From IMG/VR virus record IMGVR_UViG_2671180864_000011: 12,827 bases of DNA. One strand, written 5' to 3'. The notes below the pieces were generated by a model. The model worked only from the letters and a program-made list of their open reading frames with translations, made no database searches and had not been told where the DNA came from. Positions within the stretch are counted from its first letter, which is position 1; the number at the start of each line of letters is the position of its first letter. A program made the translations under genes and the position numbers. Source of the DNA: a virus. Taxonomy: Duplodnaviria; Heunggongvirae; Uroviricota; Caudoviricetes. Of this stretch, positions 1 through 12,827 are shown piece by piece.

Positions 1-170
1 TGAACATAAAACACTATCAATAAGTTGGAGTCATTACCAAACGGTTGAAATGTATGCCGCTACTTACGGGTCCTGTAATCCTCTGAATAAACCAGAGGGA
101 AAAGATGATTTCGACAAAATTTACCGCTTCTTGGAGGACCGCTATATCAAAAGCTTAGAGGACGCAGGGA

Positions 171-548
171 TCAAATCCCCAGTGAAGTCACCATTGTCCT
201 GAGAACTTGCAGAACGTCATGATCATAACTTCCATCCAAACCGCGACGGCGAATTGCTTCTCGTATTACCGGAAGCAGTTCGCTGGAAATCTCGGTGCAT
301 ATTTCACCTGATAATACGCTTGGCTCAAGTGAGAATATTGGTGAACTTACGGTCTTGGTCTCGACAGTTTCAGAGTCAGTGCCAACATTATAAAGCTCAA
401 CGAAAGCGGTCTTGATTTTCCGGGCCAGATCTTTTGCTGGCTCGCTTGCAATATCTTTCCCGATTTCTCGCAGCACAGAATGCAATGTATGAGCTGCTGT
501 TTTCTGTACATCAGACGGTAAATCTTTAAATTCCATCGTCAGCCTCAT
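171..548 (-). CDS. hypothetical protein (125 aa), distal gene of a leftward early operon
   Basis: Uninterrupted 125-codon ORF. Its first ATG overlaps the stop of the upstream ORF (TGATG); a second in-frame ATG 12 nt downstream is preceded by GAGG. No family motif recognisable by eye. Confidence 0.5.
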   Translation of the reverse strand: MRLTMEFKDLPSDVQKTAAHTLHSVLREIGKDIASEPAKDLARKIKTAFVELYNVGTDSETVETKTVSSPIFSLEPSVLSGEICTEISSELLPVIREAIRRRGLDGSYDHDVLQVLRTMVTSLGI

Positions 549-754
549 CAGTCAGTGTTTCTGGCTAACCAGCAACGCGCGCCAGATTCGGTTTTAAACG
601 TTTTGCTTTTGGTATACGTCATGGCGGTAAACGTTCCATCCTGGTTAGGGAACACGCCGCACACCAGAGATTCGTTGTTGCCAAGATCGATAGTATCCAT
701 GCTGACCTCATTTCCCCTTAACGCCGGGGTGGCGGAACAAAAAACCTGCTGCAT
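548..754 (-). CDS. hypothetical small protein (68 aa from the ATG at 754; 50 aa if started at the ATG at 700)
   Basis: Minus-strand ORF downstream of the operator pair at 882..922. The internal ATG (plus 698..700) has a GAGG Shine-Dalgarno 5 nt upstream; the ATG at 754 has none. Start is uncertain. Confidence 0.4.
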   Translation of the reverse strand: MQQVFCSATPALRGNEVSMDTIDLGNNESLVCGVFPNQDGTFTAMTYTKSKTFKTESGARCWLARNTD

Positions 755-881
755 AGTTAAAGATTGAACCCTGCCGTCATGTTCTTACGCCTCGGGCTGG
801 CTACTTAACCCCTGACCACTGTCTGGTAACTCGAAGTATTGCCCTGCATTCTGTGGGGCGGGGTGGGTTGACGCCTGAAAC

Positions 882-922
882 AATAGCATCATTATTTTTT
901 TGATGTAAATAGCATCGCTATT
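882..922. promoter_or_regulatory. OL-like operator pair: two 15-bp dyads at 882..896 (AATAGCATCATTATT) and 908..922 (AATAGCATCGCTATT)
   Basis: Same motif AATAG-N5-CTATT as the two dyads between the divergent repressor and cro-like genes, with the same 25-26 bp centre-to-centre spacing. Sits between the parE terminator and the leftward genes. Confidence 0.55.
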
Positions 923-937
923 GTTTTTTGTTGGGGC

Positions 938-962
938 AAGAAAAAACCACCCTAAGGTGGTT
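938..962 (-). terminator. Rho-independent terminator candidate ending the repressor-antitoxin-toxin operon
   Basis: Perfect 7-bp inverted repeat AACCACC (945..951) / GGTGGTT (956..962) with a 4-nt loop, followed on the minus strand by TTTTCTT. Lies 17 bp past the parE stop. Confidence 0.5.
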
Positions 963-978
963 CTGTCGGCGGGAATAA

Positions 979-1269
979 TTAACTGTTTTTGCCTGGATAC
1001 TGTCTTCGAGAATGCACAATATTTACTACTTCTATGCTTGATGCTGTTACTCGGTAAAGGATGATGTAGTTAGGATGAGTTACAATTTCACGAAGACCAA
1101 GAACTCGCTCGCTTGGAGGATACAGGTAAGGATGCTCTGTGAGCGGCAAAACGGATGTTTCAATTCGAATTTTCATTCTGCGTGCTGCCGCGGGATTTTC
1201 TTTAGCTATGTAGGCTACGATCTGGCGCAAATCATCACGAGCAGATGGTAGCCATAAAACGGGTAACAT
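979..1269 (-). CDS. parE: ParE/RelE-family type II toxin (ParE2-like)
   Basis: 96-aa ORF with typical ParE/RelE length and sequence character (N-terminal LPVLWLPSARDDLRQIVAYIAKENPAAA, C-terminal IVNIVHSRRQYP). Its start overlaps the stop of the upstream small ORF (shared position 1269), as in toxin-antitoxin pairs. Confidence 0.85.
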   Translation of the reverse strand: MLPVLWLPSARDDLRQIVAYIAKENPAAARRMKIRIETSVLPLTEHPYLYPPSERVLGLREIVTHPNYIILYRVTASSIEVVNIVHSRRQYPGKNS

Positions 1270-1463
1270 TATTCACCTCTGTGAGTTGCAGCAGCAATTT
1301 GGGCAATAATTTGTTCCATTTCCGCCATTACCTCATCATGCGGAATCGCCGGGCGGGGATCCGCGAGGCTTGCTGCTACTTTGGCCCGCAGCCATTCGTT
1401 GTAACTATTTTCTTGCTCAACTGTCTCAAATTCTGAAACCATTGGGGAAAGGACTGTACTCAT
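1269..1463 (-). CDS. small antitoxin partner of the ParE toxin (PaaA2-like)
   Basis: 64-codon ORF immediately upstream of and overlapping parE, with an AGGAGA Shine-Dalgarno before its ATG. Acidic, helix-prone small protein. Size and position match the antitoxin of the three-component paaR2-paaA2-parE2 loci described in E. coli O157 prophages. Confidence 0.7.
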   Translation of the reverse strand: MSTVLSPMVSEFETVEQENSYNEWLRAKVAASLADPRPAIPHDEVMAEMEQIIAQIAAATHRGE

Positions 1464-1482
1464 TTTACATATCTCCTCTGAT

Positions 1483-1983
1483 TTAGGCGCGACGGCCTTT
1501 TTGTGCAGCTAACCACCGCGCAACCGTACGATCCATTGATTCTTTTTTATCTTTCATCTCCTGAAGCATGTGTTCTTGATCTTCTTTCGGAAAAGCTCTG
1601 AACGTATGGATTAAATCTCGTTCCATCGGCTCTACGGCAAACGGTAGTTCATCCTCTGTTTGTTCTGTGTCTGCTGGTAATGCGACTATGTTATCTTGCT
1701 GTGGTTCTCGACAATACATCCTTGCAATTTGCAGCAAATCTACCATGTCTGGCCTGATTGACTCAGGGGGAACTTTCAGTAAGCCAGCAAACTTTAGAAC
1801 AGCCTCAAGGTTTAGTGGGGTTTGACCATTTAGGTAGTGACTTACCGCCCCTTGTGTTGAAAACCCCATAATTTCCGCCGCACGTTCCTGAGTCAATCCC
1901 AACTGAGATTTCTTTGCCATCCAGATTTCTTTCAGTCTTCTGGCGGCGTTGAGGTCGGTGTCTGACAATGATTTTCTTTTCAT
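1483..1983 (-). CDS. XRE-family HTH transcriptional repressor (CI-like prophage repressor / PaaR2-like); the ORF also extends to a GTG at 2013
   Basis: HTH segment LTQERAAEIMGFSTQGAVSHYLNGQ. C-terminal ~80 aa are acidic with no S24 peptidase-like region. Divergent from a cro-like gene with dyad operators between them. First gene of the operon containing the antitoxin and parE. Confidence 0.8.
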   Translation of the reverse strand: MKRKSLSDTDLNAARRLKEIWMAKKSQLGLTQERAAEIMGFSTQGAVSHYLNGQTPLNLEAVLKFAGLLKVPPESIRPDMVDLLQIARMYCREPQQDNIVALPADTEQTEDELPFAVEPMERDLIHTFRAFPKEDQEHMLQEMKDKKESMDRTVARWLAAQKGRRA

Positions 1984-2018
1984 ACATCCAATTCTAATAA
2001 GATTGCTAATCACTTTGA

Positions 2019-2058
2019 AATAGCATCACTATTTACTTTTAAAAATAACAGTGCTATT
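2019..2058. promoter_or_regulatory. OR-like operator pair: 15-bp dyads at 2019..2033 (AATAGCATCACTATT) and 2044..2058 (AATAACAGTGCTATT), overlapping divergent promoters
   Basis: Inverted half-sites AATAG/CTATT; centres 25 bp apart. A -10-like TATTAA at 2055..2060 lies 35 bp upstream of the cro-like ATG; TTGAAA at 2015..2020 is a possible -35. Confidence 0.55.
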
Positions 2059-2094
2059 AATTATGCATTGGTAACACATCACATAGGGCGGATT

Positions 2095-2358
2095 ATGAAT
2101 CTTGGAGAATATTTGCATCATTTTCATATAACCCAGAGTTCATTTGCTGAGATTGTTGGCGCATCCCAAGGGATGGTCAGCCACGTTATAACGGGGCGTG
2201 CAAAACTTACAGGAGAAAAAATATTACGTTGGTGTGAAGCAACGGGATGGGTGGTGACCCCACATGAGATTGACAGTAAAACCTACCCCAACCCAACTGA
2301 CGGCTTGCCTGCTGAGTTTCAGGCTAACACACAACCATCGGCGGGGGTTGATTCATGA
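2095..2358 (+). CDS. Cro/YdaS-like HTH regulator (ORF opens at a TTG at 2068; ATG at 2095 preferred)
   Basis: Short protein with HTH segment FHITQSSFAEIVGASQGMVSHVITGRAKLTGEKILRW. Divergent from the repressor. Its stop overlaps the next gene's start (ATGA at 2355..2358). Confidence 0.75.
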   Translation: MNLGEYLHHFHITQSSFAEIVGASQGMVSHVITGRAKLTGEKILRWCEATGWVVTPHEIDSKTYPNPTDGLPAEFQANTQPSAGVDS

Positions 2359-2780
2359 AAATCAAGCATGAACACATCCGCATGGCGATGAAAGCCTGGG
2401 CGCATCCGGACGGTGAAAAAGTTCCGGCAGCTGAAATAACCAGGGTTTATTTCGAACTGGGAATGACGTTTCCGGTTCTGCATAACGACAGCAAGCACAA
2501 CACGCTTTATCTCAACACCCAAAAGATTTTCCGTTGGCTGGATAAAGACACCCCTGACGCTGTTGAAAAAATTCAGGCGTTGTTACCTGCGATCGAAAGG
2601 GCAATGCCACCTCCGCTGGTGGCTCGAATGCGCAGCCACAGTTCAGCTTATTTTCGGGAACTGGTGGAGACGCATGAACGACTGGTGAGAGACGCTGATG
2701 ATTTTGTCGCAGTGGCAATCGCCGGTTTCAATCAGATGAACCGTGGTGGCCCGGCAGGAAATGCTGTGGCAGTACATTGA
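2355..2780 (+). CDS. YdaT-like protein (proposed CII-type regulator; historically annotated as a toxin)
   Basis: 141-aa ORF translationally coupled to the cro/YdaS-like gene, in the position and size of ydaT in Rac-type prophages. Family assignment is by gene order and recollection, not a search. Confidence 0.55.
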   Translation: MKIKHEHIRMAMKAWAHPDGEKVPAAEITRVYFELGMTFPVLHNDSKHNTLYLNTQKIFRWLDKDTPDAVEKIQALLPAIERAMPPPLVARMRSHSSAYFRELVETHERLVRDADDFVAVAIAGFNQMNRGGPAGNAVAVH

Positions 2781-2851
2781 CTGACAATAGCCATATCGAA
2801 TCGCTCCCGGCAACTCGTGAGTAAAAAGATTCGGTATCAGAAGAGGTGAGT

Positions 2852-3916
2852 ATGGCTAACGCCTGGCTCAGATTATGGCATGACATGCCAAATGACCCTA
2901 AGTGGCGAACAATTGCCAGGGTGTCAGGGCAGCCAATTGCAACAGTGATGGCAGTGTATATCCACCTCCTGGTGAGCGCGTCACGAAATGTCACGCGAGG
3001 TCACATTGATGTCACGACAGAAGATTTGGCAAGTGCGCTCGACGTGACAGAAGAGGTAATTGATTCAATTTTGCAGACGATGCAGGGGCGGGTACTTGAT
3101 GGTGATTTAATCACTGGATGGGAAAAACGCCAGGTGCTTAAAGAGGACAACGGCAATATTTCGCAAACCGCAAAATCTCCTGCAGAGCGCAAGAGGGCGC
3201 AGCGAGAGAGGGAAAGAAAGCGGGAACAAAATGGCGATTGTCACGGCGCGTCACGAAATGTCACGCACATGTCACGACGAGTCACGACAGATACAGATAA
3301 AGATACAGATAAAGAAGATCAAAACACTATGGTCCATGGCGTAAAAAACGCCACGAACCAGGCAGGGGATGTTCAGACCGTCAATCCTGGTCAGCCAGCA
3401 GGCTCGACACCGGAAGCCGATTCAGCGTATGCGCTGAAAGCCGATTCGGGCGCTGTGCAGCAGGTGATGACCGCAAGGCCGGAGCAATCACTCCAACTGC
3501 AGCAGCCTGAAGCCGATTCCGCCATTCAGCGGGAAGCCGATCGGGTAGCCCCGGAAAACACCGGGCAGCCTGTGGGACGAGTGGATTATCCGGATGTGTT
3601 CGAACAGGTCTGGCGGGAATACCCGTTGCGTGCCGGGGCAAACCCGAAGAAATCCGCATTCAGTGCCTGGAAGGCCAGATTGCGCGAGGGGGTGCCACCA
3701 GAGACCATGCTGGATGGTGTGAGGCGTTACGCGAGATACCTGGCGGCGACCGGGAAAGCGGGAACGGAATTTGTTCAGCGAGCGACGACGTTTTTTGGGC
3801 CGGACCGGAATTTTGAAAACCCCTGGTTGCTCCCGGTAAGCGGCACGAACAACCAGCGTTGTGTGAATCATATTTCTGAACCGGATACCGAAATTCCGCC
3901 GGGATTCAGGGGGTGA
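2852..3916 (+). CDS. phage replication initiator / replisome organiser (lambda O analogue, YdaU-like)
   Basis: AAGAGG Shine-Dalgarno 5 nt before the ATG at 2852 (ORF opens at a GTG at 2846). Sits directly upstream of the DnaC-like gene. Contains two clusters of GTCACG direct repeats and low-complexity charged stretches (ERKRAQRERERKRE, TDTDKDTDKED). Confidence 0.65.
   Translation: MANAWLRLWHDMPNDPKWRTIARVSGQPIATVMAVYIHLLVSASRNVTRGHIDVTTEDLASALDVTEEVIDSILQTMQGRVLDGDLITGWEKRQVLKEDNGNISQTAKSPAERKRAQRERERKREQNGDCHGASRNVTHMSRRVTTDTDKDTDKEDQNTMVHGVKNATNQAGDVQTVNPGQPAGSTPEADSAYALKADSGAVQQVMTARPEQSLQLQQPEADSAIQREADRVAPENTGQPVGRVDYPDVFEQVWREYPLRAGANPKKSAFSAWKARLREGVPPETMLDGVRRYARYLAATGKAGTEFVQRATTFFGPDRNFENPWLLPVSGTNNQRCVNHISEPDTEIPPGFRG
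2976..3019. repeat. iteron-like cluster A: GTCAC(G/A) at 2980, 2990, 3000 and 3011 (10-11 bp phasing)
   Basis: Direct hexamer repeats at helical-turn spacing inside the initiator gene. The 21-mer GCGCGTCACGAAATGTCACGC at 2976..2996 recurs exactly at 3246..3266. Confidence 0.55.
3240..3312. repeat. iteron-like cluster B: five GTCACG at 3240, 3250, 3260, 3271 and 3281, then a 12-bp tandem AGATACAGATAA x2 (3289..3312)
   Basis: Five phased hexamers followed by an A/T-richer tandem repeat; layout resembles the intragenic origin of lambdoid phages. Confidence 0.55.
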
Positions 3917-3922
3917 TGTGGC

Positions 3923-4669
3923 ATGAAAAACATTGCGGCAGCCGGGGTTCTTGAACGTATTCACAGACTTGCACCACAGGGGGCGGTTCCACCGTACCGG
4001 ACGGTGGAGGAGTGGCGGGAATGGCAACTTGCTGAAGGACGAAAACGCAGCGAGGAGATTAACCGCCAGAATCGCCAGTTGCGGGTGGAAAAAATCCTGA
4101 ATCGTTCGGGCATCCAGCCTCTGCACAGCAAATGCTCGTTTGCGAATTATCAGGTGCAGAACGACGGGCAAAAATACGCGCTGAGCCAGGCCAAATCCAT
4201 AGCTGACGAACTGATGACCGGGTGCACGAATTTTGTGTTCAGCGGTAAAACCGGCACCGGGAAAAATCACCTTGCAGCGGCGATGGGTAACCGGCTGATG
4301 GCGAAGGGGCGCAGCGTGATTATCGTCACCGAGTCTGATGTCATGAGCGTGTTGCATGACAGCTACGACAACGGCAAATCCGGTGAAAAATTTTTACAGG
4401 AGCTTTGCGGGGTTGATTTGCTGGTCCTGGATGAAATAGGCATTCAGCGGGAGACGAAAAACGAGCAGGTGGTATTGCACCAGATAATTGATCGCCGGAC
4501 AGCATCACTGTGCAGTGTCGGGATGTTAACAAACCTGAATCATGCCGCAATGAGCACGCTTCTTGGTGAGAGGATTATGGACCGCATGACCATGAACGGT
4601 TGTCGGTGGGTGACGTTTAACTGGGATAGCTGGCGTTCAAATGTCAGCTTTCCGGGAGTTGTGAAGTAA
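3923..4669 (+). CDS. DnaC-like AAA+ helicase-loader ATPase (phage P-analogue, YdaV-like)
   Basis: Walker A FSGKTGTGKNHLAAAMG and Walker B LLVLDEIG. Start lies 7 nt after the initiator stop, preceded by a GGGGGTGA Shine-Dalgarno. Confidence 0.85.
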   Translation: MKNIAAAGVLERIHRLAPQGAVPPYRTVEEWREWQLAEGRKRSEEINRQNRQLRVEKILNRSGIQPLHSKCSFANYQVQNDGQKYALSQAKSIADELMTGCTNFVFSGKTGTGKNHLAAAMGNRLMAKGRSVIIVTESDVMSVLHDSYDNGKSGEKFLQELCGVDLLVLDEIGIQRETKNEQVVLHQIIDRRTASLCSVGMLTNLNHAAMSTLLGERIMDRMTMNGCRWVTFNWDSWRSNVSFPGVVK

Positions 4670-4690
4670 TTTTTGTTGGAGGATGTTTTA

Positions 4691-5416
4691 ATGGAAACTG
4701 TATTTGACGCACTGAAAGCACTGAAAAGAGCCTCTTCACATGTGGTGGCGTCCCGCCTTGGAATCAGCCGTGAAGATGCGGTCAACGAACTGTGGAAACT
4801 GAAGCGCCGTGGTGAAGCGGATAACAAGGGTTCGATGTGGTGGCTGATTCAGGCTGGTGAAAGTGAACCAGTGTCACCGGTACCGAAAGTGACAGCGCAA
4901 ATGCTGACTGAGGCGATTGAACAACATGGCCCACAAACGGCGGATGAGCTGGCACTGATGTTCGGGATTACCTCCCGCCGGGCGAATTCATCGCTGGCCA
5001 TGGCAATCAGCAAAGGGCGTCTGATTCGCGTGAATCAGGGCGGTAAATTTCGGTACTGCATACCGGGCGCTGATTTACCGGCAGAGCCGAAAGCCGCATC
5101 CATAGCGGAAACGGATGGTAAAGTCTTTCCTCAGCCAGCAGGTGTTGCGTTACCGGTACAGGAAGCTGCAACACAGGAAGAAATTAAAACAGAAACTGTG
5201 GCGGACATTGTGCAGTCGTTGCCATCGTTCACCGAAACGCAAGCGGATGACCTGGTTTTACCATCGCTGCATATGGCAAACCGCGAACTGCGTCGGGCGA
5301 AAAGTCATGTCCAGAAGTGGGAGCGTGTCTGCGCCGCGTTGCGGGAGCTGAACAAGCACCGGGATATTGTTCGACAGATTGTCGATTCCTCCGGTCGTAT
5401 TGTGTCGGAAAAGTGA
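4691..5416 (+). CDS. hypothetical protein (241 aa) with possible N-terminal winged-helix-like region
   Basis: ATG at 4691 preceded by GGAGGA (the track ORF opens at a TTG at 4673). N-terminal segment [27 protein letters not shown]. No catalytic motif recognised. Confidence 0.6.
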
Positions 5417-5431
5417 TTGCCGGGGGCGCTT

Positions 5432-5854
5432 ATGGCAAAAGTATTTACACAGGAAGAGCGGGAAAAAATTAAGGGGCAGGTTGTTGAACTCGTACGCCAG
5501 AGTGGGCGCGAGACGTTACGACAACTGGAAGCTAAAACCGGGGCGACAAGATATTTAATAAGCGTTCTCGCCAGAGAGCTGGTTGCCAGTGGGGATGTAT
5601 ACAACTCTGGCTACGGGTTATTCCCGTCTGAACAGGCTCGTAAGGACTGGCAAAACGCCCGCAAAAAACTCTCGAGGGCAAAGCTGAAGAAACCATCTGT
5701 GGTTGATCCGGACCTTATCTGGTCATTACCAGACGGAGAAATACGCCGCTACGACAGACATCAGAACATAATCTGTCGCGAGTGCCGGAAGAGTGAAGTT
5801 ATGCAGCGTGTACCGGCTTTCTATCAGGGTGATTTTCAGGAGGCGGTACTGTGA
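5432..5854 (+). CDS. hypothetical protein (140 aa), possible winged-helix N-terminus and C-terminal CxxC
   Basis: ATG at 5432 (track ORF opens at a TTG at 5417). A diverged, 5'-truncated second copy at 8744..9133 differs mostly at synonymous sites, which argues the reading frame is real and under selection. Confidence 0.6.
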   Translation: MAKVFTQEEREKIKGQVVELVRQSGRETLRQLEAKTGATRYLISVLARELVASGDVYNSGYGLFPSEQARKDWQNARKKLSRAKLKKPSVVDPDLIWSLPDGEIRRYDRHQNIICRECRKSEVMQRVPAFYQGDFQEAVL

Positions 5855-7470
5855 GTGAAATTAGCTATCAGGCTTCAATTACCGCTGGCATTCGCATCAA
5901 AGGAGAGGAGCATGGAAATAAAACCAGAAGATGAGTTAAGCAATATTGTTTTATTTCCGGTAAAAGAGGATAACCCTCGTAATCAGGTTAATTTTCTTTA
6001 TGAGCCATCGGAAAGACCATATTGCCATCACGCTTCTGTCCGGGTTGACGAAAAAGAGCGTCAGGTCCGCTGTAAAATTTGCGGTGCAGTTGTGGAGCCA
6101 TTTGACTGGATGCTCTCTGTGGCGAAAAGAGAAACCAGACTGGCAGATGATGTAAGGCTCTTGCGCCAGGAGGAGCGGGAAAGGCGAAAAAATATAGAAA
6201 AGCTAATCCAGATTGAGCGTAATGCGAAAGCGCGGATACGCAGGGTGACAAAATATAGCCCCGAATAATCAAGGTTATTTCTGGAAGTCAAGTCGTGAGT
6301 GATGAGGACTAACAAATACGGTGAACTCGATAAAGAGATTCAGGACGAACTGGAGGCCAGGAATGATTGACAAATCACCAAGTGAGTTCAGCTACAAAGA
6401 TTTATTGTCATAACGGGTTATGAGATCGACTTGGTGCGTGATATTCTTCGGGCCAGTTTGCTATGCGCCACCATGAGATGTTATGGCCCGCATGTTTGAT
6501 ACATTAGGATTTTACATTATGAATGTGCAACATTTTGATTTTTTTACAGATAATGAGTTTTCTAATCTGGAAAGATATCAAACTTGTAAAGCCATGGCCA
6601 AAGGTTATGCGGGCAATTACAAAACCGGGCAGTCAAGGTTGATGCATGCCCGCTCATACTGCTTCAGCATCGTAGCTGCATATTGGGATACCCTTGCAAA
6701 AAAGCAAAAAAGCAGCATTAAAATGAGGGCAGTACCGCACACTGTTTACATAGAAGACATTCCATGTGATGCACGCGAGCTCGCTGAACGAACAGGTGAG
6801 CTTATTGCTCAATTTCCGGCGGAGGACGCTGGATATCTGATTGGGTCAATTTATACGGTAATGCTGCCATCCGCTTACCGTTCGGAATTGGGGGCTTACT
6901 ATACCCCCCCACCTTTGGTAGCGCGTCTCTTGGACCTGGCTGAAAAGTCTGGTGTTGATTTTTCTCATGCATCGGTTATTGATCCTGCGTGTGGTGGCGG
7001 TGCATTTTTGGCACCAGTAGCCATTCGAATGTTAAAAAAAGACAAGGGGTCTTCCCCTGAATGGATGTTGAGGAGAATCAGTCGTCGTTTAAAGGGGATA
7101 GAAATCGATCCATTTGCGGCTTGGATGAGTTTGGTATTGCTCGAATCTGTACTAATGCCACTATGTGTAAAGGTAAAACGTAGATTGCCTGAAGATACAA
7201 TTATTGTTGCTGATGCGCTTCAGCAAGATAAATTTTCTGGTTATGATCTTGTGGTAGGGAATCCGCCTTACGGACGTGTCACTCTCGATATTAAAACGAG
7301 AGAAAAATATTCTCGTTCGTTATTTGGTCATGCAAATCTATATGGATTGTTCACCGACTTAGCTGTTCGCATGGTTAAAGAGAAAACAGGAGTTATTGCA
7401 TTTCTTACGCCAACTTCTTTTCTTGGTGGGCAGTATTTCACCGCGCTGCGAACCCTTTTGACCGAAAAAA
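5465..7470. repeat. copy 1 of a ~2.0-kb direct repeat (140-aa gene, zinc-ribbon gene, leader, methyltransferase 5' half)
   Basis: Collinear with 8744..10749 at a constant offset of 3279 bp. Encoded proteins are identical from about 5710 onward; the first ~245 bp carry multiple substitutions. Confidence 0.85.
5912..6268 (+). CDS. hypothetical zinc-ribbon-like protein with basic coiled-coil tail (118 aa), copy 1
   Basis: Strong Shine-Dalgarno AAAGGAGAGGAG before the ATG at 5912 (track ORF opens at a GTG at 5855). C-H-H...C-K-I-C spacing suggests a metal-binding ribbon; C-terminus RLLRQEERERRKNIEKLIQIERNAKARIRR. An identical copy lies at 9191..9547. Confidence 0.6.
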   Translation: MEIKPEDELSNIVLFPVKEDNPRNQVNFLYEPSERPYCHHASVRVDEKERQVRCKICGAVVEPFDWMLSVAKRETRLADDVRLLRQEERERRKNIEKLIQIERNAKARIRRVTKYSPE

Positions 7471-7526
7471 ATTGGCTAATGAGGTGTACTGGCAATAGCG
7501 GACACTACCATTTGTTCTTTTTTTAA
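6483..7526 (+). pseudogene. 3'-truncated copy of the N6-adenine DNA methyltransferase gene
   Basis: First 329 codons are identical to the intact gene at 9762..11594. Homology ends at 7470, followed by 9 unrelated bp and the IS left end at 7480. The ORF then reads through unrelated sequence to a stop at 7526. Motifs X, I and IV are retained; the C-terminal domain is lost. Confidence 0.8.
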
Positions 7527-8341
7527 GCAGCCATCTGATGATATTTTTCCCTGAAGGCTGCCGGGGAGATATTCCCCAGACGAGAGTGACGACGCTGACG
7601 ATTGTAGAAAATCTCAATGTATTCCCGTATTACTGAGATGGCTTCATCCCGGTTATTAAAACGATAGTGGCTCAGGCTCTCATTTTTCAGCGTTCCCCAG
7701 AAGCTTTCCATCGGAGCGTTGTCGTAACAGTTACCTTTACGCGACATTGATGTTTTCAGACCAGACTGCTCCTGTATGACCCGGTAATCGTATGCGCAGT
7801 ACTGTGAACCTCGATCAGAGTGGTGGATTAGCCCGGCAGGTGGGCGCTGGCTCCTGAGCGCCATAAACAGGGCTTTACCTGTCAGCTCTTTTGTCATGCG
7901 CTCTCCCATGGCGTAGCCGACAATTTCGCACGTATAAACATCTTTGATGCCAGCGAGGTACAACCATCCCTCCTGTGTGGCAACATACGTCAGGTCCGCC
8001 ACCCAGACCTGATTTGGTGCTGTAGGAGCGAACGTCTGGTTCAGCAGATTTGGCGCAACTGGCAGATTGTGGTTCGAGTTCGTAGTCGCTCTGAACTTGC
8101 GTTTCTGCTTACAGCGTAGCCTTAGCTCCTTACGAAGACGTGCCAGTCGGTCACGACCAACGATGATGCCATTCTCTGCCAGCTCCGTCTGGAGCCGCCG
8201 GGTTCCATATGTTTCGCGAGTGCGGATATGTGCCACCTTAATCTCCAGTTTTAGCCGCTCATCACTTTGTTTTCTGTCTGAGGGTTCATGCTGTACCCAG
8301 TTGTAATAACCGCTCCTGGATACACCAAATACCTGACACAT
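7523..8341 (-). CDS. IS3-family transposase OrfB (DDE catalytic domain), normally made as an OrfAB fusion by -1 frameshifting
   Basis: 272-aa ORF in the -1 frame relative to orfA. Integrase-type catalytic core typical of IS3 OrfB (VWVADLTY ... HHSDRGSQY ... NAPMESFWGTLK). Confidence 0.85.
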   Translation of the reverse strand: MCQVFGVSRSGYYNWVQHEPSDRKQSDERLKLEIKVAHIRTRETYGTRRLQTELAENGIIVGRDRLARLRKELRLRCKQKRKFRATTNSNHNLPVAPNLLNQTFAPTAPNQVWVADLTYVATQEGWLYLAGIKDVYTCEIVGYAMGERMTKELTGKALFMALRSQRPPAGLIHHSDRGSQYCAYDYRVIQEQSGLKTSMSRKGNCYDNAPMESFWGTLKNESLSHYRFNNRDEAISVIREYIEIFYNRQRRHSRLGNISPAAFREKYHQMAA

Positions 8342-8376
8342 CGCTTCAATGGGAAATTGTTGTCGCCATTGTTCGA

Positions 8377-8679
8377 TTAACGCGTATTTTTCAGCGACTC
8401 CTGTGCAAAATACGCTGTTGCTTTTTTTAATATATCTCGCTCAAGGCGAGCTTCATTTAACGCCTTACGCAGTTGCAGAATTTCAGATTCCAGTTCAGCC
8501 ACCGTGCGGGAACCAGGAGTACCGAGCCCTTTTCTGGCGGCGGTAACCCATTGTCCTAAAGTGCCTTCAGGAAGAGATAATCGGGAAGCGCCTTCACTGA
8601 TCGAAAGTTGATTTTCAGGAACCGTTCTGACAGCTTCGGCTTTGAACTCTTTAGAGTAACGTTGGGTTTTTCTGCTCAT
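8377..8679 (-). CDS. IS3-family transposase OrfA (HTH DNA-binding subunit)
   Basis: 100-aa ORF with a leucine-zipper-like C-terminus (ELESEILQLRKALNEARLERDILKKATAYFAQ) ending just after the slippery run. Confidence 0.85.
   Translation of the reverse strand: MSRKTQRYSKEFKAEAVRTVPENQLSISEGASRLSLPEGTLGQWVTAARKGLGTPGSRTVAELESEILQLRKALNEARLERDILKKATAYFAQESLKNTR
8422..8428 (-). other. programmed -1 ribosomal frameshift slippery run (A AAA AAA G on the minus strand) for OrfAB
   Basis: Seven consecutive T on the plus strand inside the orfA codons for L-K-K-A, in the orfA/orfB overlap. Confidence 0.6.
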
Positions 8680-8743
8680 TATTAGCTCCTTCTGATGCCA
8701 TTCTATTTCAGGAAGGAGTGTCCGTTAAACTCAGGCTACCTCA

Positions 8744-9133
8744 AAAATTAAAGGGCAGGTTGTTGAACTTGTACGTCTGAGCGGTCGCGAGACGTTGCGG
8801 CAACTGGAAGCCAAGACAGGTGCGACAAGATATCTGATGAGTGTTCTCGCCAGAGAGCTGGTTGCCAGTGGCGATGTATACAACTCTGGTTACGGGTTAT
8901 TCCCGTCTGAACAGGCGCGTAAGGACTGGCAAAACGCCCGCAAAAAACTCTCAAGGGCAAATCTGAAGAAACCATCTGTGGTTGATCCTGACCTTATCTG
9001 GTCATTACCAGACGGAGAAATACGCCGCTACGACAGACATCAGAACATAATCTGTCGCGAGTGCCGGAAGAGTGAAGTTATGCAGCGTGTACCGGCTTTC
9101 TATCAGGGTGATTTTCAGGAGGCGGTACTGTGA
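8744..9133 (+). pseudogene. 5'-truncated, diverged second copy of the 140-aa hypothetical gene
   Basis: Homology to 5465..5854 begins immediately after the IS right end and lacks the first 11 codons. About 20 nucleotide differences but only 3 amino-acid changes (Q to L, I to M, K to N). The track ORF 8795..9133 begins at an internal Met. Confidence 0.7.
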
Positions 9134-9190
9134 GTGAAATTAGCTATCAGGCTTCAATTACCGCTGGCATTCGCATCAAAGGAGAGGAGC

Positions 9191-9547
9191 ATGGAAATAA
9201 AACCAGAAGATGAGTTAAGCAATATTGTTTTATTTCCGGTAAAAGAGGATAACCCTCGTAATCAGGTTAATTTTCTTTATGAGCCATCGGAAAGACCATA
9301 TTGCCATCACGCTTCTGTCCGGGTTGACGAAAAAGAGCGTCAGGTCCGCTGTAAAATTTGCGGTGCAGTTGTGGAGCCATTTGACTGGATGCTCTCTGTG
9401 GCGAAAAGAGAAACCAGACTGGCAGATGATGTAAGGCTCTTGCGCCAGGAGGAGCGGGAAAGGCGAAAAAATATAGAAAAGCTAATCCAGATTGAGCGTA
9501 ATGCGAAAGCGCGGATACGCAGGGTGACAAAATATAGCCCCGAATAA
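9191..9547 (+). CDS. hypothetical zinc-ribbon-like protein, copy 2 (protein identical to copy 1)
   Basis: Same Shine-Dalgarno and ATG context as copy 1; translation identical. Confidence 0.6.
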   Translation: MEIKPEDELSNIVLFPVKEDNPRNQVNFLYEPSERPYCHHASVRVDEKERQVRCKICGAVVEPFDWMLSVAKRETRLADDVRLLRQEERERRKNIEKLIQIERNAKARIRRVTKYSPE

Positions 9548-9761
9548 TCAAGGTTATTTCTGGAAGTCAAGTCGTGAGTGATGAGGACTAACAAATACGG
9601 TGAACTCGATAAAGAGATTCAGGACGAACTGGAGGCCAGGAATGATTGACAAATCACCAAGTGAGTTCAGCTACAAAGATTTATTGTCATAACGGGTTAT
9701 GAGATCGACTTGGTGCGTGATATTCTTCGGGCCAGTTTGCTATGCGCCACCATGAGATGTT

Positions 9762-11594
9762 ATGGCCCGCATGTTTGATACATTAGGATTTTACATTATG
9801 AATGTGCAACATTTTGATTTTTTTACAGATAATGAGTTTTCTAATCTGGAAAGATATCAAACTTGTAAAGCCATGGCCAAAGGTTATGCGGGCAATTACA
9901 AAACCGGGCAGTCAAGGTTGATGCATGCCCGCTCATACTGCTTCAGCATCGTAGCTGCATATTGGGATACCCTTGCAAAAAAGCAAAAAAGCAGCATTAA
10001 AATGAGGGCAGTACCGCACACTGTTTACATAGAAGACATTCCATGTGATGCACGCGAGCTCGCTGAACGAACAGGTGAGCTTATTGCTCAATTTCCGGCG
10101 GAGGACGCTGGATATCTGATTGGGTCAATTTATACGGTAATGCTGCCATCCGCTTACCGTTCGGAATTGGGGGCTTACTATACCCCCCCACCTTTGGTAG
10201 CGCGTCTCTTGGACCTGGCTGAAAAGTCTGGTGTTGATTTTTCTCATGCATCGGTTATTGATCCTGCGTGTGGTGGCGGTGCATTTTTGGCACCAGTAGC
10301 CATTCGAATGTTAAAAAAAGACAAGGGGTCTTCCCCTGAATGGATGTTGAGGAGAATCAGTCGTCGTTTAAAGGGGATAGAAATCGATCCATTTGCGGCT
10401 TGGATGAGTTTGGTATTGCTCGAATCTGTACTAATGCCACTATGTGTAAAGGTAAAACGTAGATTGCCTGAAGATACAATTATTGTTGCTGATGCGCTTC
10501 AGCAAGATAAATTTTCTGGTTATGATCTTGTGGTAGGGAATCCGCCTTACGGACGTGTCACTCTCGATATTAAAACGAGAGAAAAATATTCTCGTTCGTT
10601 ATTTGGTCATGCAAATCTATATGGATTGTTCACCGACTTAGCTGTTCGCATGGTTAAAGAGAAAACAGGAGTTATTGCATTTCTTACGCCAACTTCTTTT
10701 CTTGGTGGGCAGTATTTCACCGCGCTGCGAACCCTTTTGACCGAAAAAACTACTCCGTATGCCCTTGATTTCGTCACTGACAGGGATGGGGTCTTTGACG
10801 ATGTTCTCCAGGAAACAATGTTGACAGCATTCAAGGCGGGAGAACATAAAGTTCGGGCCCAGGTATCCTCACTTGTCCCTAAGGGGTTGAACAAAGCAAA
10901 AATTGAGAAAATAGGTAATGTTGATATAGAAAAAGGTGGAGCAACGTGGCTTTTGCCACGCGTTAAAGATGATGCCTGTTTTCTTAATGTATTAAAACAG
11001 ATGTCTACGCGTTTAGCTGATCTGGGATACTCAGTCTCTACAGGTCAGTTAGTCTGGAATCGATTTAAGTCGCAGTTGCGTACGACGAAAGGAAAAAATA
11101 GCTACCCATTAGTCTGGGCGGAATCAATAACTTCAGCTGGTTTTCGTTTTAGTGCAGACAGAAAAAATCATGTTCCCTATATCGATATAACCCCACAACA
11201 GGGTTTCCTTGTGACAAAATCTGAATGTGTGCTTGTTCAGCGGACAACATCGAAGGAACAGGACAGAAGGATTTTAGCGGCAATTTTACCTCAGGGATTT
11301 ATAGATGAAACTGGTGGCGTAGTAGTTGAAAACCATATTAATATTGTATATTCAAACGGATTGTTCTCTGCGGTTCGCCCTGATGTTATTGATATGCTAC
11401 TTAATTCGCATGTTGTCGATCGGGCGTTCAGGTGTATAAGCGGAAGTGTTGCTGTTTCGGCCTATGAATTGAATTCAATCCCGTTGCCTTCTCTGGAGCA
11501 GGTGATGGAGATTCAATCGTTAATTGATGCTGGCGTCCACAGACGGATTATTGAGAGAACTATCGCTGGTTTCTATGGAGTGATGATTGCATGA
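9762..11594 (+). CDS. gamma-class N6-adenine DNA methyltransferase (type II RM-type; possible true start at ATG 9798)
   Basis: Motif order X (GAYYTPPPLVARLL), I (DPACGGGAFL), IV (VVGNPPYGR), followed by a ~340-aa C-terminal region consistent with a target-recognition domain. AGGA lies 9 nt before the ATG at 9798; the ATG at 9762 has no Shine-Dalgarno. Confidence 0.85.
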   Translation: MARMFDTLGFYIMNVQHFDFFTDNEFSNLERYQTCKAMAKGYAGNYKTGQSRLMHARSYCFSIVAAYWDTLAKKQKSSIKMRAVPHTVYIEDIPCDARELAERTGELIAQFPAEDAGYLIGSIYTVMLPSAYRSELGAYYTPPPLVARLLDLAEKSGVDFSHASVIDPACGGGAFLAPVAIRMLKKDKGSSPEWMLRRISRRLKGIEIDPFAAWMSLVLLESVLMPLCVKVKRRLPEDTIIVADALQQDKFSGYDLVVGNPPYGRVTLDIKTREKYSRSLFGHANLYGLFTDLAVRMVKEKTGVIAFLTPTSFLGGQYFTALRTLLTEKTTPYALDFVTDRDGVFDDVLQETMLTAFKAGEHKVRAQVSSLVPKGLNKAKIEKIGNVDIEKGGATWLLPRVKDDACFLNVLKQMSTRLADLGYSVSTGQLVWNRFKSQLRTTKGKNSYPLVWAESITSAGFRFSADRKNHVPYIDITPQQGFLVTKSECVLVQRTTSKEQDRRILAAILPQGFIDETGGVVVENHINIVYSNGLFSAVRPDVIDMLLNSHVVDRAFRCISGSVAVSAYELNSIPLPSLEQVMEIQSLIDAGVHRRIIERTIAGFYGVMIA

Positions 11595-12673
11595 ATCTGC
11601 CTGTTGTTCCCCCATTGAATGTTATCCGGGAAAGATTACAATTAATTTTCCCTGAAGGGACTGAGAATCGTGGATATTTAATTCGGGAAATAGCTGCAAA
11701 AACAATTTTTGTCATGTTTTATGCTGGTGCGGTTGAGGGGCTGGGGCGATGGATAAGGCCCAGCCAGGTTGTAAGTATGGGAGATTCGCAGGCTGCTCTT
11801 ACTGATGATGCGTCCAGAGAAAGCTGGGTAAAGATGACTTTCTCTAAACAAAAGATAAGGCCTGCTGATGCATGGTATGCGGAAAATACGCGTGAGCCAA
11901 TACGTGATGAAACTATAAAAAATGGCCTAATACCTTGCAATGCAATTGTTGAGCGTAAAGGTATACCCACCACATCCTCTCGTCCTCGTTACAGTTTGAA
12001 TCGCTCTTTTGCAGCACTCTTTGATGCCGGGCTTGAAGGAGATTCGCTGCTGAGTGCAATAAGTTCCTGGCAAGAAAATCATTTGAACAAAGCCGCTCTT
12101 GCTAGGTTGCGTTTATTGAAATCAGGGGCAGTGATTGCTGCTGATGCCGTAGTCGTCACTTTCCCAAATGGAGAGAAGAGAACTTTAGCTCCGGGCCCGT
12201 CAAGTACAATAGCTAAGGCCGTCATCGAAGTTTTTGCTCCTAATTTTCTTAAGAATCCAACTGTGCTCTGGTTGTCTGAATCCGGGAATAAAGTTGTTGC
12301 TCAGGATGATGTATTGGCAAAAGCATTGGGGCTGAATATTGATGCCTCAAAAGCACTTCCAGATATTATTTTGATTGATTTGGGAGAGGACCGAACGGGT
12401 TCGGACATGCTTGTAGTTTTCACTGAAGTAGTTGCGACAGATGGGCCTATAAACAGGGAACGAAAAGTTACTCTCACTCATTTGGCTATTGACGCTGGGT
12501 TCAGCGAGAAAAATCTTGCATTCCTTACGGCATTTATGGACAGAAGTGCTCTGCCTTTTAAAAAGGCAATACCAGAATTGGCGTGGGGATCTTATGCATG
12601 GTTTGCTTCTGAACCGGAGCACTTAATTGATCTTCGGGATGGTTATCCGGTAAAGATCAGCCAGAGAAAATGA
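11591..12673 (+). CDS. putative restriction endonuclease partner of the methyltransferase (possibly BsuBI/PstI-like); function not proven
   Basis: 360-aa ORF whose ATG overlaps the methyltransferase stop (ATGA at 11591..11594). Same AT-rich composition as the methyltransferase. No unambiguous PD-(D/E)xK motif identified by eye, so the call rests on gene context. Confidence 0.5.
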   Translation: MNLPVVPPLNVIRERLQLIFPEGTENRGYLIREIAAKTIFVMFYAGAVEGLGRWIRPSQVVSMGDSQAALTDDASRESWVKMTFSKQKIRPADAWYAENTREPIRDETIKNGLIPCNAIVERKGIPTTSSRPRYSLNRSFAALFDAGLEGDSLLSAISSWQENHLNKAALARLRLLKSGAVIAADAVVVTFPNGEKRTLAPGPSSTIAKAVIEVFAPNFLKNPTVLWLSESGNKVVAQDDVLAKALGLNIDASKALPDIILIDLGEDRTGSDMLVVFTEVVATDGPINRERKVTLTHLAIDAGFSEKNLAFLTAFMDRSALPFKKAIPELAWGSYAWFASEPEHLIDLRDGYPVKISQRK

Positions 12674-12827
12674 CCAAAGTTTGATATCCGCCACGCCCTG
12701 AAGGATGGGGGTTTTACGGTGCACTGGATAAAAAATCGGTTTCATAGATTTGCCCACCGTGGTATACGCCTGCGATAAAAACTTTATTGTCATCAACGGC
12801 AAAAGCAATAATTGTTCTGTGGCGGGG

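Follow-up and report, generated by a model that had tools for sequence, protein, structure and literature searches.

A small tandem duplication in a Shigella sonnei prophage remnant, with a joint probably built from DNA of a second remnant

The window (the whole 12,827-nucleotide stretch analysed, IMG/VR record IMGVR_UViG_2671180864_000011) spanned exactly one IS1-to-IS1 interval and was assigned by its sequence to the Qin-site lambdoid prophage remnant of Shigella sonnei, labelled P1 here. It carried a tandem duplication of 3279 bp, with an IS600 element of 1264 bp at the joint. This joint was probably built from DNA of P2, a second, scrambled lambdoid remnant assigned to the same S. sonnei chromosome, through microhomology on the left and a homologous crossover on the right. 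The duplication event is in all likelihood real, and is an ordinary strain-specific recombination scar, neither a transposition nor a new system.

Self-comparison of the window at an offset of 3279 displayed a direct repeat of 2007 bp (5464-7470 vs 8743-10749). As position 8743 is the final base of the insertion sequence, the true homology extends from 5465-7470 and from 8744-10749. The two copies differed at 22 positions, all located between 5473 and 5710, and were identical over the remaining 1760 bp (5711-7470, 0 mismatches), the probability of all 22 falling by chance in the first 247 of 2006 bp being about 1e-20. Most differences were synonymous (19 of 22, the other 3 changing amino acids), so that the start of copy 2 is an old allele rather than a product of decay. 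Repeat copy 1 was 100% identical to a single-copy S. sonnei locus (L009). The initial annotation had reported a duplicated 2-kb segment, an IS3-family element exactly at the novel junction and the gene order across both copies, all of which were borne out, by the self-comparison, by the position of IS600 (7480-8743), and by open reading frames (ORFs) together with Pfam matches, respectively. The features were as follows:

5432..5854, + strand: intact DUF977 gene, 140 aa, resident "allele a" (ORF; Pfam PF06163, E=2e-30)
5464..7470, + strand: repeat copy 1, holding the 3' nine-tenths of DUF977, the zinc-ribbon gene and methyltransferase codons 1-329 (self-comparison)
5912-6268, + strand: zinc-ribbon gene, copy 1
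6483..7526, + strand: truncated methyltransferase ORF, 347 aa (ORF; Pfam)
7461..7470, + strand: 10-nt microhomology ACCGAAAAAA (three-way comparison of methyltransferase, window and P2)
7471..7477, + strand: apparently templated patch ATTGGCT, 7 nt, continuing the P2 17-mer ACCGAAAAAAATTGGCT
7478..7479, + strand: two A residues, 7479 being the P2 base adjoining the IS end and 7478 a base without identified template
7480..8743, - strand: IS600 (IS3 family), 1264 bp, with TGAGG...CCTCA ends
8679-8377, - strand: IS600 orfA (Pfam HTH_Tnp_1)
8341-7523, - strand: IS600 orfB (Pfam HTH_21, rve, rve_3, rve_2)
8744..8989, + strand: 5'-truncated DUF977 "allele b", P2-derived, holding all 22 differences from copy 1
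8744..10749, + strand: repeat copy 2, holding the truncated mosaic DUF977, the zinc-ribbon gene and the first 988 nt of the intact methyltransferase
8990..9036, + strand: crossover interval of 47 bp without any difference between the alleles, inside which P2 gives way to resident sequence
9191-9547, + strand: zinc-ribbon gene, copy 2
9762..11594, + strand: intact N6-adenine DNA methyltransferase, 610 aa (Pfam N6_Mtase, Eco57I)
11591..12673, + strand: intact BsuBI/PstI-family type II restriction endonuclease, 360 aa (Pfam PF06616, PF17728; RefSeq naming)

The first block thus ran from the intact DUF977 gene through the zinc-ribbon gene to methyltransferase codon 329 and was followed by IS600 and the second block, composed of the 5'-truncated DUF977 (a mosaic extending to 9133), the zinc-ribbon gene, the intact 610-aa methyltransferase and the BsuBI/PstI-type endonuclease. 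The exact 140-aa DUF977 protein was named from S. sonnei and found on at least 1000 contigs, and its DNA was 100% identical across 18 S. sonnei loci. The truncated methyltransferase ORF combined 329 native residues with NWLMRCTGNSGHYHLFFF, encoded by the patch and the IS end. It kept the AdoMet-binding and NPPY motifs and lost the C-terminal 281 residues, its Pfam Eco57I and N6_Mtase matches stopping at residues 330-333; its product had no entry in a collection of 15 billion proteins. The exact 610-aa methyltransferase was also named from S. sonnei. Both it and the adjoining endonuclease were intact, and each matched a protein widespread in S. sonnei with full identity; together they are predicted to form a type II restriction-modification system of the PstI/BsuBI family, with the 360-aa endonuclease, judging by family and position, as partner of the methyltransferase.

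The resident locus was traced in other genomes. Window positions 1-7470 and 9037-12827 were 100% identical to CP032523.1, from which the segment 8743-12827 differed only at the 22 clustered sites. Elsewhere, the P1 gene order (DnaC-DUF1627-DUF977-Zn-MTase-REase) was found once and without IS600 at every place given by two exact-protein look-ups (31 contigs read per look-up, almost all of which were complete S. sonnei chromosomes), and the zinc-ribbon protein was encoded at one place per genome on these contigs. No IS600 was found in the P1 DUF977 or the P1 methyltransferase in any single-copy S. sonnei locus read. The comparison with single-copy relatives suggested in the initial annotation has thereby been made, and the S. 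sonnei chromosomes read carried the block once, without the insertion sequence.

The element in the window showed 0-3 mismatches over 1264 bp to copies annotated in RefSeq as [quoted passage not shown], and its ends, TGAGGTGTACTGGCAATAGCGGACAC and, as reverse complement, TGAGGTAGCCTGAGTTTAACGGACAC, formed imperfect terminal inverted repeats starting with 5'-TGAGG. Its boundaries could be fixed because nine other IS600 copies were flanked by clean 3-bp duplications (e.g., GAC/GAC in an Stx2a phage). With these boundaries the flanks were TAA and AAA, in agreement with the earlier claim that a target-site duplication is missing, so that this copy does not represent a primary insertion, its identity as IS600 being unaffected. 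Among 14 distinct IS600 copies that were read on chromosomes of S. sonnei, 7 likewise had no target duplication, and copies of this kind are ordinary there. IS600 has been recently active in S. sonnei, in which its expansion is documented (PMC7373316), and rearrangement rates in Shigella are high (PMC8072062).

The origin of the joint was indicated by P2, which in one reference genome has the same orientation as P1 and is separated from it by about 340 kb. P2 is itself an example of a prophage remnant scrambled by IS-IS recombination, and its IS600 is flanked by a 5'-truncated DUF977 of a different allele and by a fragment of an 87-aa gene. In the P2 locus used as donor reference (L047), the IS600 copy had 0 mismatches to that of the window, and the IRL-side flank (AAAATTAAAGGGCAGG...) matched the window from 8744. 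Identity was 100% over 1558 bp (7479-9036), comprising one flank base, IS600 and 293 bp of the 5'-truncated DUF977, and all 15 mismatches began at 9037. The allele b segment (8744-8989) was 100% identical to S. sonnei P2 and, over 248 bp, to DUF977 of prophages of E. coli ATCC 25922 and ST131; truncated allele-b products of 98 and 112 aa are recorded from S. sonnei 53G and 3226-85. Another locus (L097) had the same IS600-F junction with an other-side partner different from that of L047; other P2 states thus exist, and the reference may not match that of the source strain. By these identities the joint is P2 DNA, and IS600 would be a passenger from P2. Since it came with its right-hand flank, no transposition into P1 took place, and the target duplication is missing because the element was carried in within P2. 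With P1 represented by CP032523.1 and 7479-9036 by L047, the suggestion of a recombination between two related prophages rather than a simple insertion was upheld.

On the right, the last P2-specific base was 8989 and the first resident-specific base 9037, so the allele switch lies within a stretch of identity with parental markers on either side, as in ectopic recombination between paralogues. A full-length DUF977 protein (WP_065552319.1) combining an allele-b N-terminus with a resident C-terminus occurred in other S. sonnei isolates, a mosaic indicating that exchange between DUF977 paralogues recurs in this species.

On the left, the methyltransferase reference read ...GACCGAAAAAA followed by CTACTCC, whereas the window read ...GACCGAAAAAA followed by ATTGGCTAA and TGAGG. 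As stated in the initial annotation, nine bases (7471..7479) belonged neither to the IS nor to the methyltransferase, or eight if the extra A is joined to the A-run. The preceding ACCGAAAAAA was common to the methyltransferase gene and to the P2 sequence beside IS600, with unrelated flanks on both sides, i.e., a short shared breakpoint sequence without longer homology, as in microhomology junctions. Extended by ATTGGCT, it formed a 17-mer (ACCGAAAAAAATTGGCT, window 7461-7477), 10 nt of which were also in the methyltransferase, that was found exactly in L047, 7-23 nt outside the same IS600 end and in opposite orientation relative to the IS, as well as at position 6033 of an uninterrupted E. coli prophage (L018). 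The native continuation of this sequence (...GGCTTT) was present in 85 IMG/VR contigs, and the window-type continuation (...GGCTAA) in 0 IMG/VR contigs. ATTGGCT thus appears copied from near the IS end that comes next in the window, as in templated insertions, and identity between window and P2 begins at 7479. The "orphan" bases would therefore be a templated patch from P2, save one base (7478). Compared with L047, the patch is inverted relative to the IS end, so that one has to assume either one more strand switch or a P2 in another state.

The sequence would follow P1 to methyltransferase codon 329, pass through the 10-nt microhomology into 7 nt of P2, continue with one or two A residues, then run through the P2 IS600 and 246-293 bp of the P2 DUF977, and finally return by a homologous crossover within the 47-bp identity to the P1 DUF977, P1 being read twice. 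While the origins of the segments and the positions of the joints were read directly from alignments, the process can only be inferred. Two routes fit equally well: a single event of replicative repair, break-induced or microhomology-mediated, in which the template was switched and which may have begun at the IS end, or an unequal exchange between DUF977 paralogues giving a duplication of about 340 kb, later trimmed by a microhomology deletion. A more specific and doubtful reading is that the joint is the footprint of a fork or broken end failing exactly at a transposase-nicked IS600 end and rescued by microhomology-mediated template switching, with a first switch onto the opposite strand 7-23 nt away and a second onto the methyltransferase about 340 kb away. 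If true, IS3-family elements would seed duplications via site-specific nicks rather than via transposition or homology.

An artefact of assembly or library preparation, with only normal P1 and P2 in the genome and a chimeric contig, was judged improbable, although the warning of the initial annotation against an assembly artefact still holds. It could arise from mis-traversal of the assembly graph via the 47-bp stretch common to the DUF977 alleles, from chimeric long reads or from in-vitro template switching. In normal genomes, a different prophage holds IS600 together with the 293 bp that open copy 2, a circumstance named beforehand as telling against the duplication, and the switch from P2 to P1 falls in an identity that a short-k graph could merge. 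Polymerase chimeras formed in vitro likewise carry microhomology and short inverted patches as their signature. Neither junction was found a second time in complete genomes of E. coli, in plasmids, in IMG/VR, in JGI metagenomes or among GTDB representatives, and the junction-spanning ORFs had no match in the protein collection, so the structure rests on one sequence. An IS1-to-IS1 window also resembles a fragmented assembly, yet this one crosses both an exact repeat of 1760 bp and a 1264-bp IS that is present in multiple copies. The left junction (methyltransferase, ATTGGCTA and IS600) is in neither parental locus, so the reads must contain it and mis-joining of true k-mers cannot yield it. 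Were it real without a return to P1, about 340 kb would have been lost, including the endonuclease side of P1, which is implausible. Flanks and the 1760-bp repeat were moreover error-free against S. sonnei references, pointing to consensus-quality sequence.

In the classical IS-mediated route, IS600 would have inserted in both the methyltransferase and DUF977 (on two chromatids or one chromosome), unequal IS-IS recombination then leaving a hybrid IS at the joint. Such an exchange does yield an IS at a duplication joint without target duplication, IS600 is active in S. sonnei, and half of its copies lack target duplications. This route is nevertheless very unlikely, given that the part of copy 2 adjacent to the IS is the P2 allele and not the resident one (22 old, mostly synonymous differences), that the IS-DUF977 junction is identical to one pre-existing in P2, that the left flank holds a P2-templated patch instead of methyltransferase sequence up to the IS end, and that no S. 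sonnei genome read has IS600 at either P1 site. An unequal IS-IS crossover was accordingly not supported, as neither a parental IS at both endpoints in the single-copy S. sonnei loci read nor the same allele right up to the IS was found; with a single-copy parent free of IS600 at either endpoint, an IS-mediated rearrangement in the classical sense, as initially proposed, was not sustained. Lambdoid phages recombine readily, and prophages of E. coli commonly carry allele b, with 100% identity over 248 bp, which would suit an exogenous lambdoid phage or transduced DNA carrying allele b and IS600 instead of resident P2. Such a donor is equally improbable as the classical route, as the IS600-allele-b junction was present in S. 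sonnei P2 and absent from 5426 complete E. coli genomes and IMG/VR viral contigs, the IS copy is identical to that of P2, and the patch source adjoins IS600 only in the P2 arrangement.

A joint built from P2 DNA has partial parallels. In the lac amplification system of Salmonella and E. coli, Kugelberg, Reams, Roth and colleagues reportedly found tandem duplications with short-junction joints, in which microhomology ranges from a few nt up to about 10 nt and short patches, inverted or templated, may be present; large unstable duplications can be trimmed to small ones. The S. sonnei joint shares the tandem duplication and the 10-nt microhomology, but it is illegitimate on one side only, the other being a homologous crossover of diverged paralogues, and it holds about 1.55 kb from a third place (P2), whole IS included. 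Microhomology-mediated break-induced replication and fork-stalling template switching are said by Hastings, Lupski and colleagues to produce complex rearrangements with templated insertions, reportedly described mainly in eukaryotes and laboratory E. coli. Several switches, a 10-nt microhomology, one untemplated base and a 7-nt patch whose source lies, in opposite orientation, less than 25 nt from the next template are common features, whereas the P1 case would be deduced from one natural sequence. As in IS26-type translocatable units and composite transposons, the insert formally consists of one IS and some 2 kb of neighbouring DNA, and on paper it is equivalent to a circle of 3279 bp that integrated by homology; it differs by having no second IS copy and no target duplication, by an IS3-family element that moves alone by copy-out-paste-in, and by adjacent DNA that is a P2/P1 mosaic, no pre-existing unit so composed being known. 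Studies of IS- and prophage-driven rearrangements in Shigella and E. coli are concerned with events between IS copies, namely inversions, deletions and gene loss (PMC8072062; PMC7373316). They share with the present case the organism group, the IS600 expansion with many copies lacking target duplications, and prophage remnants scrambled by IS-IS recombination, but here a small duplication was found, with the IS as passenger and a phage-gene paralogue as homologous substrate.

The broad biological weight of this single strain-specific, probably neutral variant in a cryptic prophage of a rearrangement-prone species is small. If the duplication is true, reads containing CCGAAAAAAATTGGCTAATGAGGTG are expected, and, should the variant be clonal, its junction k-mer could serve as marker of a sublineage. 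Assemblies of this region in S. sonnei call for caution, since the two loci have a stretch of 47 bp in common. The structure also serves as a worked example: an IS at a duplication joint need not be its cause, and the donor can be revealed by synonymous differences that cluster and by a handful of "orphan" bases. One intact copy each of DUF977, the zinc-ribbon gene, the methyltransferase and the endonuclease was kept, so the product is probably neutral and, from its predicted gene content, would leave the cell unexposed to an unmodified restriction system: a rearrangement can cut into the methyltransferase of a restriction-modification pair and still survive, since an intact methyltransferase is retained through the duplication.

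The window carried a direct repeat of 2007 bp (5464-7470 and 8743-10749), delimited by self-comparison at an offset of 3279, while a generic repeat finder returned its first 300 bp only. The two copies differed by 22 mismatches, all within 5473-5710, and the remaining 1760 bp (5711-7470) displayed none. The initial annotation, which had described a duplicated 2-kb segment with an IS3-family element at the joint, was confirmed in all details of its observation: an IS600 of 1264 bp separated the copies, and ORFs and Pfam domains gave the same order from the intact 140-aa gene to the intact methyltransferase (MTase), as follows.

Copy 1 (5464-7470): intact DUF977 gene (140 aa), zinc-ribbon gene (118 aa), codons 1-329 of the MTase
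7480-8743, minus strand: IS600, 1264 bp, with TGAGG...CCTCA ends, a 100-aa orfA and a 272-aa orfB
Copy 2 (8743-10749) and onward: 5'-truncated DUF977 gene, zinc-ribbon gene, intact 610-aa N6-adenine MTase, 360-aa BsuBI/PstI-family endonuclease

Intact proteins of the window had exact counterparts among proteins named from Shigella sonnei, each on at least 999 contigs. Positions 1-7470 were 100% identical to S. sonnei CP032523.1 and 8743-12827 differed from that locus only at 22 clustered sites, an identity pattern also displayed by 18 further S. sonnei loci. This resident locus (P1) is located between ynfF/G/H-type genes and ydfI-ydfZ-ydfH-ydfG-dcp and holds dicB and ydfA/B/C-type genes, and was therefore assigned to a Qin-site lambdoid prophage remnant. 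The first 38 bp of the window (1-38) are the terminal 38 bp of an IS1, and the window ends (12826-12827) exactly at the point at which the next IS1 starts in reference genomes; it encompasses the whole IS1-to-IS1 interval, which may reflect break points of the source assembly.

Related loci harbored the segment in a single copy. Exact-protein look-ups with the MTase and the zinc-ribbon protein (31 contigs each, nearly all complete S. sonnei chromosomes) returned loci that all encoded the DnaC-like, DUF1627, DUF977, zinc-ribbon, MTase and endonuclease proteins once each, without IS600, and no second zinc-ribbon-protein locus was found in any genome read (31 contigs per look-up). The two closest E. 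coli loci were likewise single-copy. The comparison with single-copy relatives proposed in the initial annotation thus gave the same state throughout the loci read, which makes the duplication a variant of this strain. Collapse or expansion of a normally two-copy region was ruled out, as the reference loci are single-copy. ORFs spanning the junctions (347/344/335-aa MTase fusion; 112/98-aa mosaic DUF977) were not on record in protein look-ups.

The PstI/BsuBI-type restriction-modification pair (9762-12673) was essentially fixed in S. sonnei (exact proteins on at least 1000 contigs), and among 5426 complete E. coli genomes only 2 had its DNA. Elsewhere in the window, an exact 21-bp direct repeat, GCGCGTCACGAAATGTCACGC (2976-2996 and 3246-3266, 270 bp apart), occurred inside the replisome-organizer (lambda O-like) ORF (2846-3916) and is a candidate origin iteron or binding site. 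On the minus strand (979-1463), adjoining the prophage repressor gene, a 96-aa ParE-family toxin and a 64-aa PaaA2-type antitoxin were encoded.

The insertion sequence displayed HTH_Tnp_1 in orfA and HTH_21, rve, rve_3 and rve_2 in orfB, and differed by 0 to 3 bases from RefSeq copies annotated as 'IS3-like element IS600 family transposase, programmed frameshift'. Its boundaries were fixed by other IS600 copies with clean 3-bp flanking duplications (GAC/GAC in an Stx2a phage; CAT, AAC, GTT, AGC and TTC in S. sonnei). The window copy is flanked by TAA and AAA, and therefore has no target duplication, as the initial annotation had noted. This absence is not remarkable in S. sonnei: among 14 distinct IS600 copies in the loci read from CBDDMI010000001.1 and CP104423.1 (L029-L048), 7 had clean 3-bp duplications and 7 did not, which indicates frequent IS600-IS600 recombination or adjacent rearrangement. 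IS600 has been recently active in S. sonnei (PMC7373316), and Shigella chromosomes show high rearrangement rates (PMC8072062).

The 22 differences between copies all fell in the 247 bp adjoining the IS, 19 being synonymous and three changing amino acids (Q23L, I43M, K84N), a pattern of old allelic divergence under purifying selection and not of decay after duplication. For DUF977, copy 1 had the allele resident in S. sonnei. Copy 2 started with a sequence (allele b) 100% identical to DUF977 of many E. coli prophages, including those of ATCC 25922 and ST131, and from 9037 on followed the resident and not the E. coli allele. Neither the mosaic DUF977 (allele b and resident) nor the IS600-DUF977 junction was found in complete E. 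coli genomes. Other S. sonnei isolates (contigs up to 9739 bp) encoded a full-length DUF977, WP_065552319.1, joining an allele-b N-terminal part to a resident C-terminal part with the same crossover interval as copy 2, which shows that exchange between DUF977 paralogues recurs.

Exact look-ups located 5'-truncated allele-b DUF977 within S. sonnei itself, as the 98-aa SS322685_2700 of strain 3226-85 (4.82-Mb chromosome) and the 112-aa SS53G_1369 of strain 53G. The donor, a second lambdoid prophage remnant (P2), was reached through exact look-ups of IS600 orfA and orfB, the orfB match leading to CBDDMI010000001.1:1,819,802-1,825,620. The IS600 of P2 is joined to TCCATCACCG... and to AAAATTAAAGGG...; it had 0 mismatches to the window copy, and its IRL end continued into AAAATTAAAGGGCAGGTTGTTGAACTTGTA, exactly the right junction of the window. 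Positions 7479-9036, which comprise one flank base, the complete IS and 293 bp of DUF977, were 100% identical to P2, all 15 mismatches lying from 9037 on. P2 is related to the ATCC 25922 prophage and has been scrambled: a segment that runs from DUF977 into the 5' part of an 87-aa gene is inverted against the remaining sequence and abutted by an integrase fragment, an IS1 is inserted after DUF977, and the 3 bp TCC are found at both break ends. It exists in more than one state, a locus of another genome (L097, 3493 region) having the same IS600-F junction with a different partner on the IRL side. On the same chromosome the coordinates are about 2.16 Mb for P1 and about 1.82 Mb for P2, and the plus strand of the window corresponds to the minus strand of the record for both; the two remnants thus lie about 340 kb from each other, in direct orientation.

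At the left joint the MTase reads ...GACCGAAAAAA, with CTACTCC as its native continuation, while the window has ATTGGCTAA there and then the IS; the earlier claim that 9 bp (7471..7479) are foreign to both IS and MTase was borne out by this comparison with reference MTase sequences. On the IRR side of the P2 element, the IS is followed by TCCATC, ACCGAAAAAAATTGGCT and TTTACAC. The 17-mer ACCGAAAAAAATTGGCT is an exact match to 7461-7477, in which the first 10 nt also form the final 10 nt of the native MTase stretch, and the last 7 nt are the first seven orphan bases. It also occurs about 640 bp downstream of DUF977 in an uninterrupted E. coli prophage (L018, 6033); its orientation in the window is opposite to that in P2 relative to the IS end, and as in the uninterrupted phage relative to DUF977. 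Base 7479 is the P2 base adjoining the IS, and 7478 is the sole base without a template. By these matches the left joint consists of MTase, a 10-nt microhomology, 7 nt copied from P2, 1 nt, and the P2 IS600. Split reads of the duplication structure would contain CCGAAAAAAATTGGCTAATGAGGTG.

Other sources for the 9 bp were considered and rejected. GGCTAA, as a natural variant of P2, was found in 0 IMG/VR contigs, against 85 with the native continuation GGCTTT, 7 of which had IS600 at the same TCC site. Unselected S. sonnei IS600 copies had unrelated flanks, so the bases are not part of a longer IS600 end, nor was a target preference established. In several unrelated E. coli copies, sequence resembling ATTGGC lay 3-4 bp beyond the IRR end (ATATTGGCAAC and ATATTGGCGCAC next to the IS; L003 1501, L004 1501), although these flanks came from BLAST matches chosen by query similarity and may be due to chance rather than target preference. 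As an earlier flank of this IS copy, the exact pattern was absent from IMG/VR, GTDB representative genomes, JGI metagenomes, plasmids (including 122 Shigella plasmid records) and E. coli genomes; in CP032523.1, a different flank adjoins the IS600 located 2.4 kb upstream of P1. A natural MTase allele with the continuation ...EKNWL was discarded, since both of the E. coli genomes with DNA of this MTase (2 of 5426) cease matching at 7470, and CCGAAAAAAATTGGCTAA was found in no IMG/VR viral contig. Derivation from an IS600 circle junction (GGCTACCTCA-NNN-TGAGG plus a deletion) relied on a 5-nt resemblance seen by eye and was dropped after the 17-mer match in P2, while TGGCTAA near the IS in L097 is a 7-nt resemblance judged to be chance.

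The origin of each segment could thus be established. Sequence matches to both parents show one illegitimate joint, with a 10-nt microhomology and a templated patch, and a second joint formed by homologous crossover in the 47 bp (8990-9036) common to both DUF977 alleles. Because IS600 arrived with its P2 flank, it did not transpose into the window site. The data support the initial view of a recombination between two related prophages instead of a simple insertion, and they define it at the base level. An assembly artefact is improbable as an explanation of this structure, even though a single instance is available, part of copy 2 is normally found in another prophage, the return to P1 falls in the stretch common to both alleles, and the window resembles an IS1-bounded contig yet crosses a multicopy IS and an exact repeat of 1760 bp. 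The left junction sequence exists in neither parent, and must therefore be present in reads; if this junction is real, the duplication-bearing genome is the sole viable genome containing it. All parental segments were, moreover, error-free.

Two routes would yield the same product by ectopic recombination between P1 and P2. In a single replicative repair event, synthesis would pass from DUF977 of P1 to the homologous copy of P2 and on through IS600, switch strand for 17 nt at the IS end, and re-anneal through the 10-nt microhomology in the MTase of P1, which would then be copied again. Alternatively, unequal exchange between DUF977 paralogues of sister chromosomes would create a duplication of about 340 kb, later trimmed by a microhomology deletion between the MTase and the IS end. 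Events of both kinds are established, as short-junction duplications and their remodelling in Salmonella and as microhomology-mediated break-induced replication. That a nick at the IS600 end initiated template-switching repair is unlikely, although a start at a transposase nick is an attractive speculation since the breakpoint lies within 2 nt of the IS600 end. The event is of an already known kind, in which ectopic recombination leaves a microhomology joint in a genome rich in IS elements.

Intact genes were kept in the duplicated structure, DUF977 in copy 1 and the zinc-ribbon gene in both copies, and copy 2 retained the intact MTase together with the 214-bp region upstream of it, followed by the endonuclease. 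The truncated MTase ORF (347 aa), in which 281 C-terminal residues are missing, keeps the AdoMet and NPPY motifs and is probably inert. As nothing was lost, neutrality of the variant is most likely. Had an IS simply inserted at this position of the MTase, the endonuclease would have been left without its MTase, which may be the reason why only the duplication-bearing form is seen.
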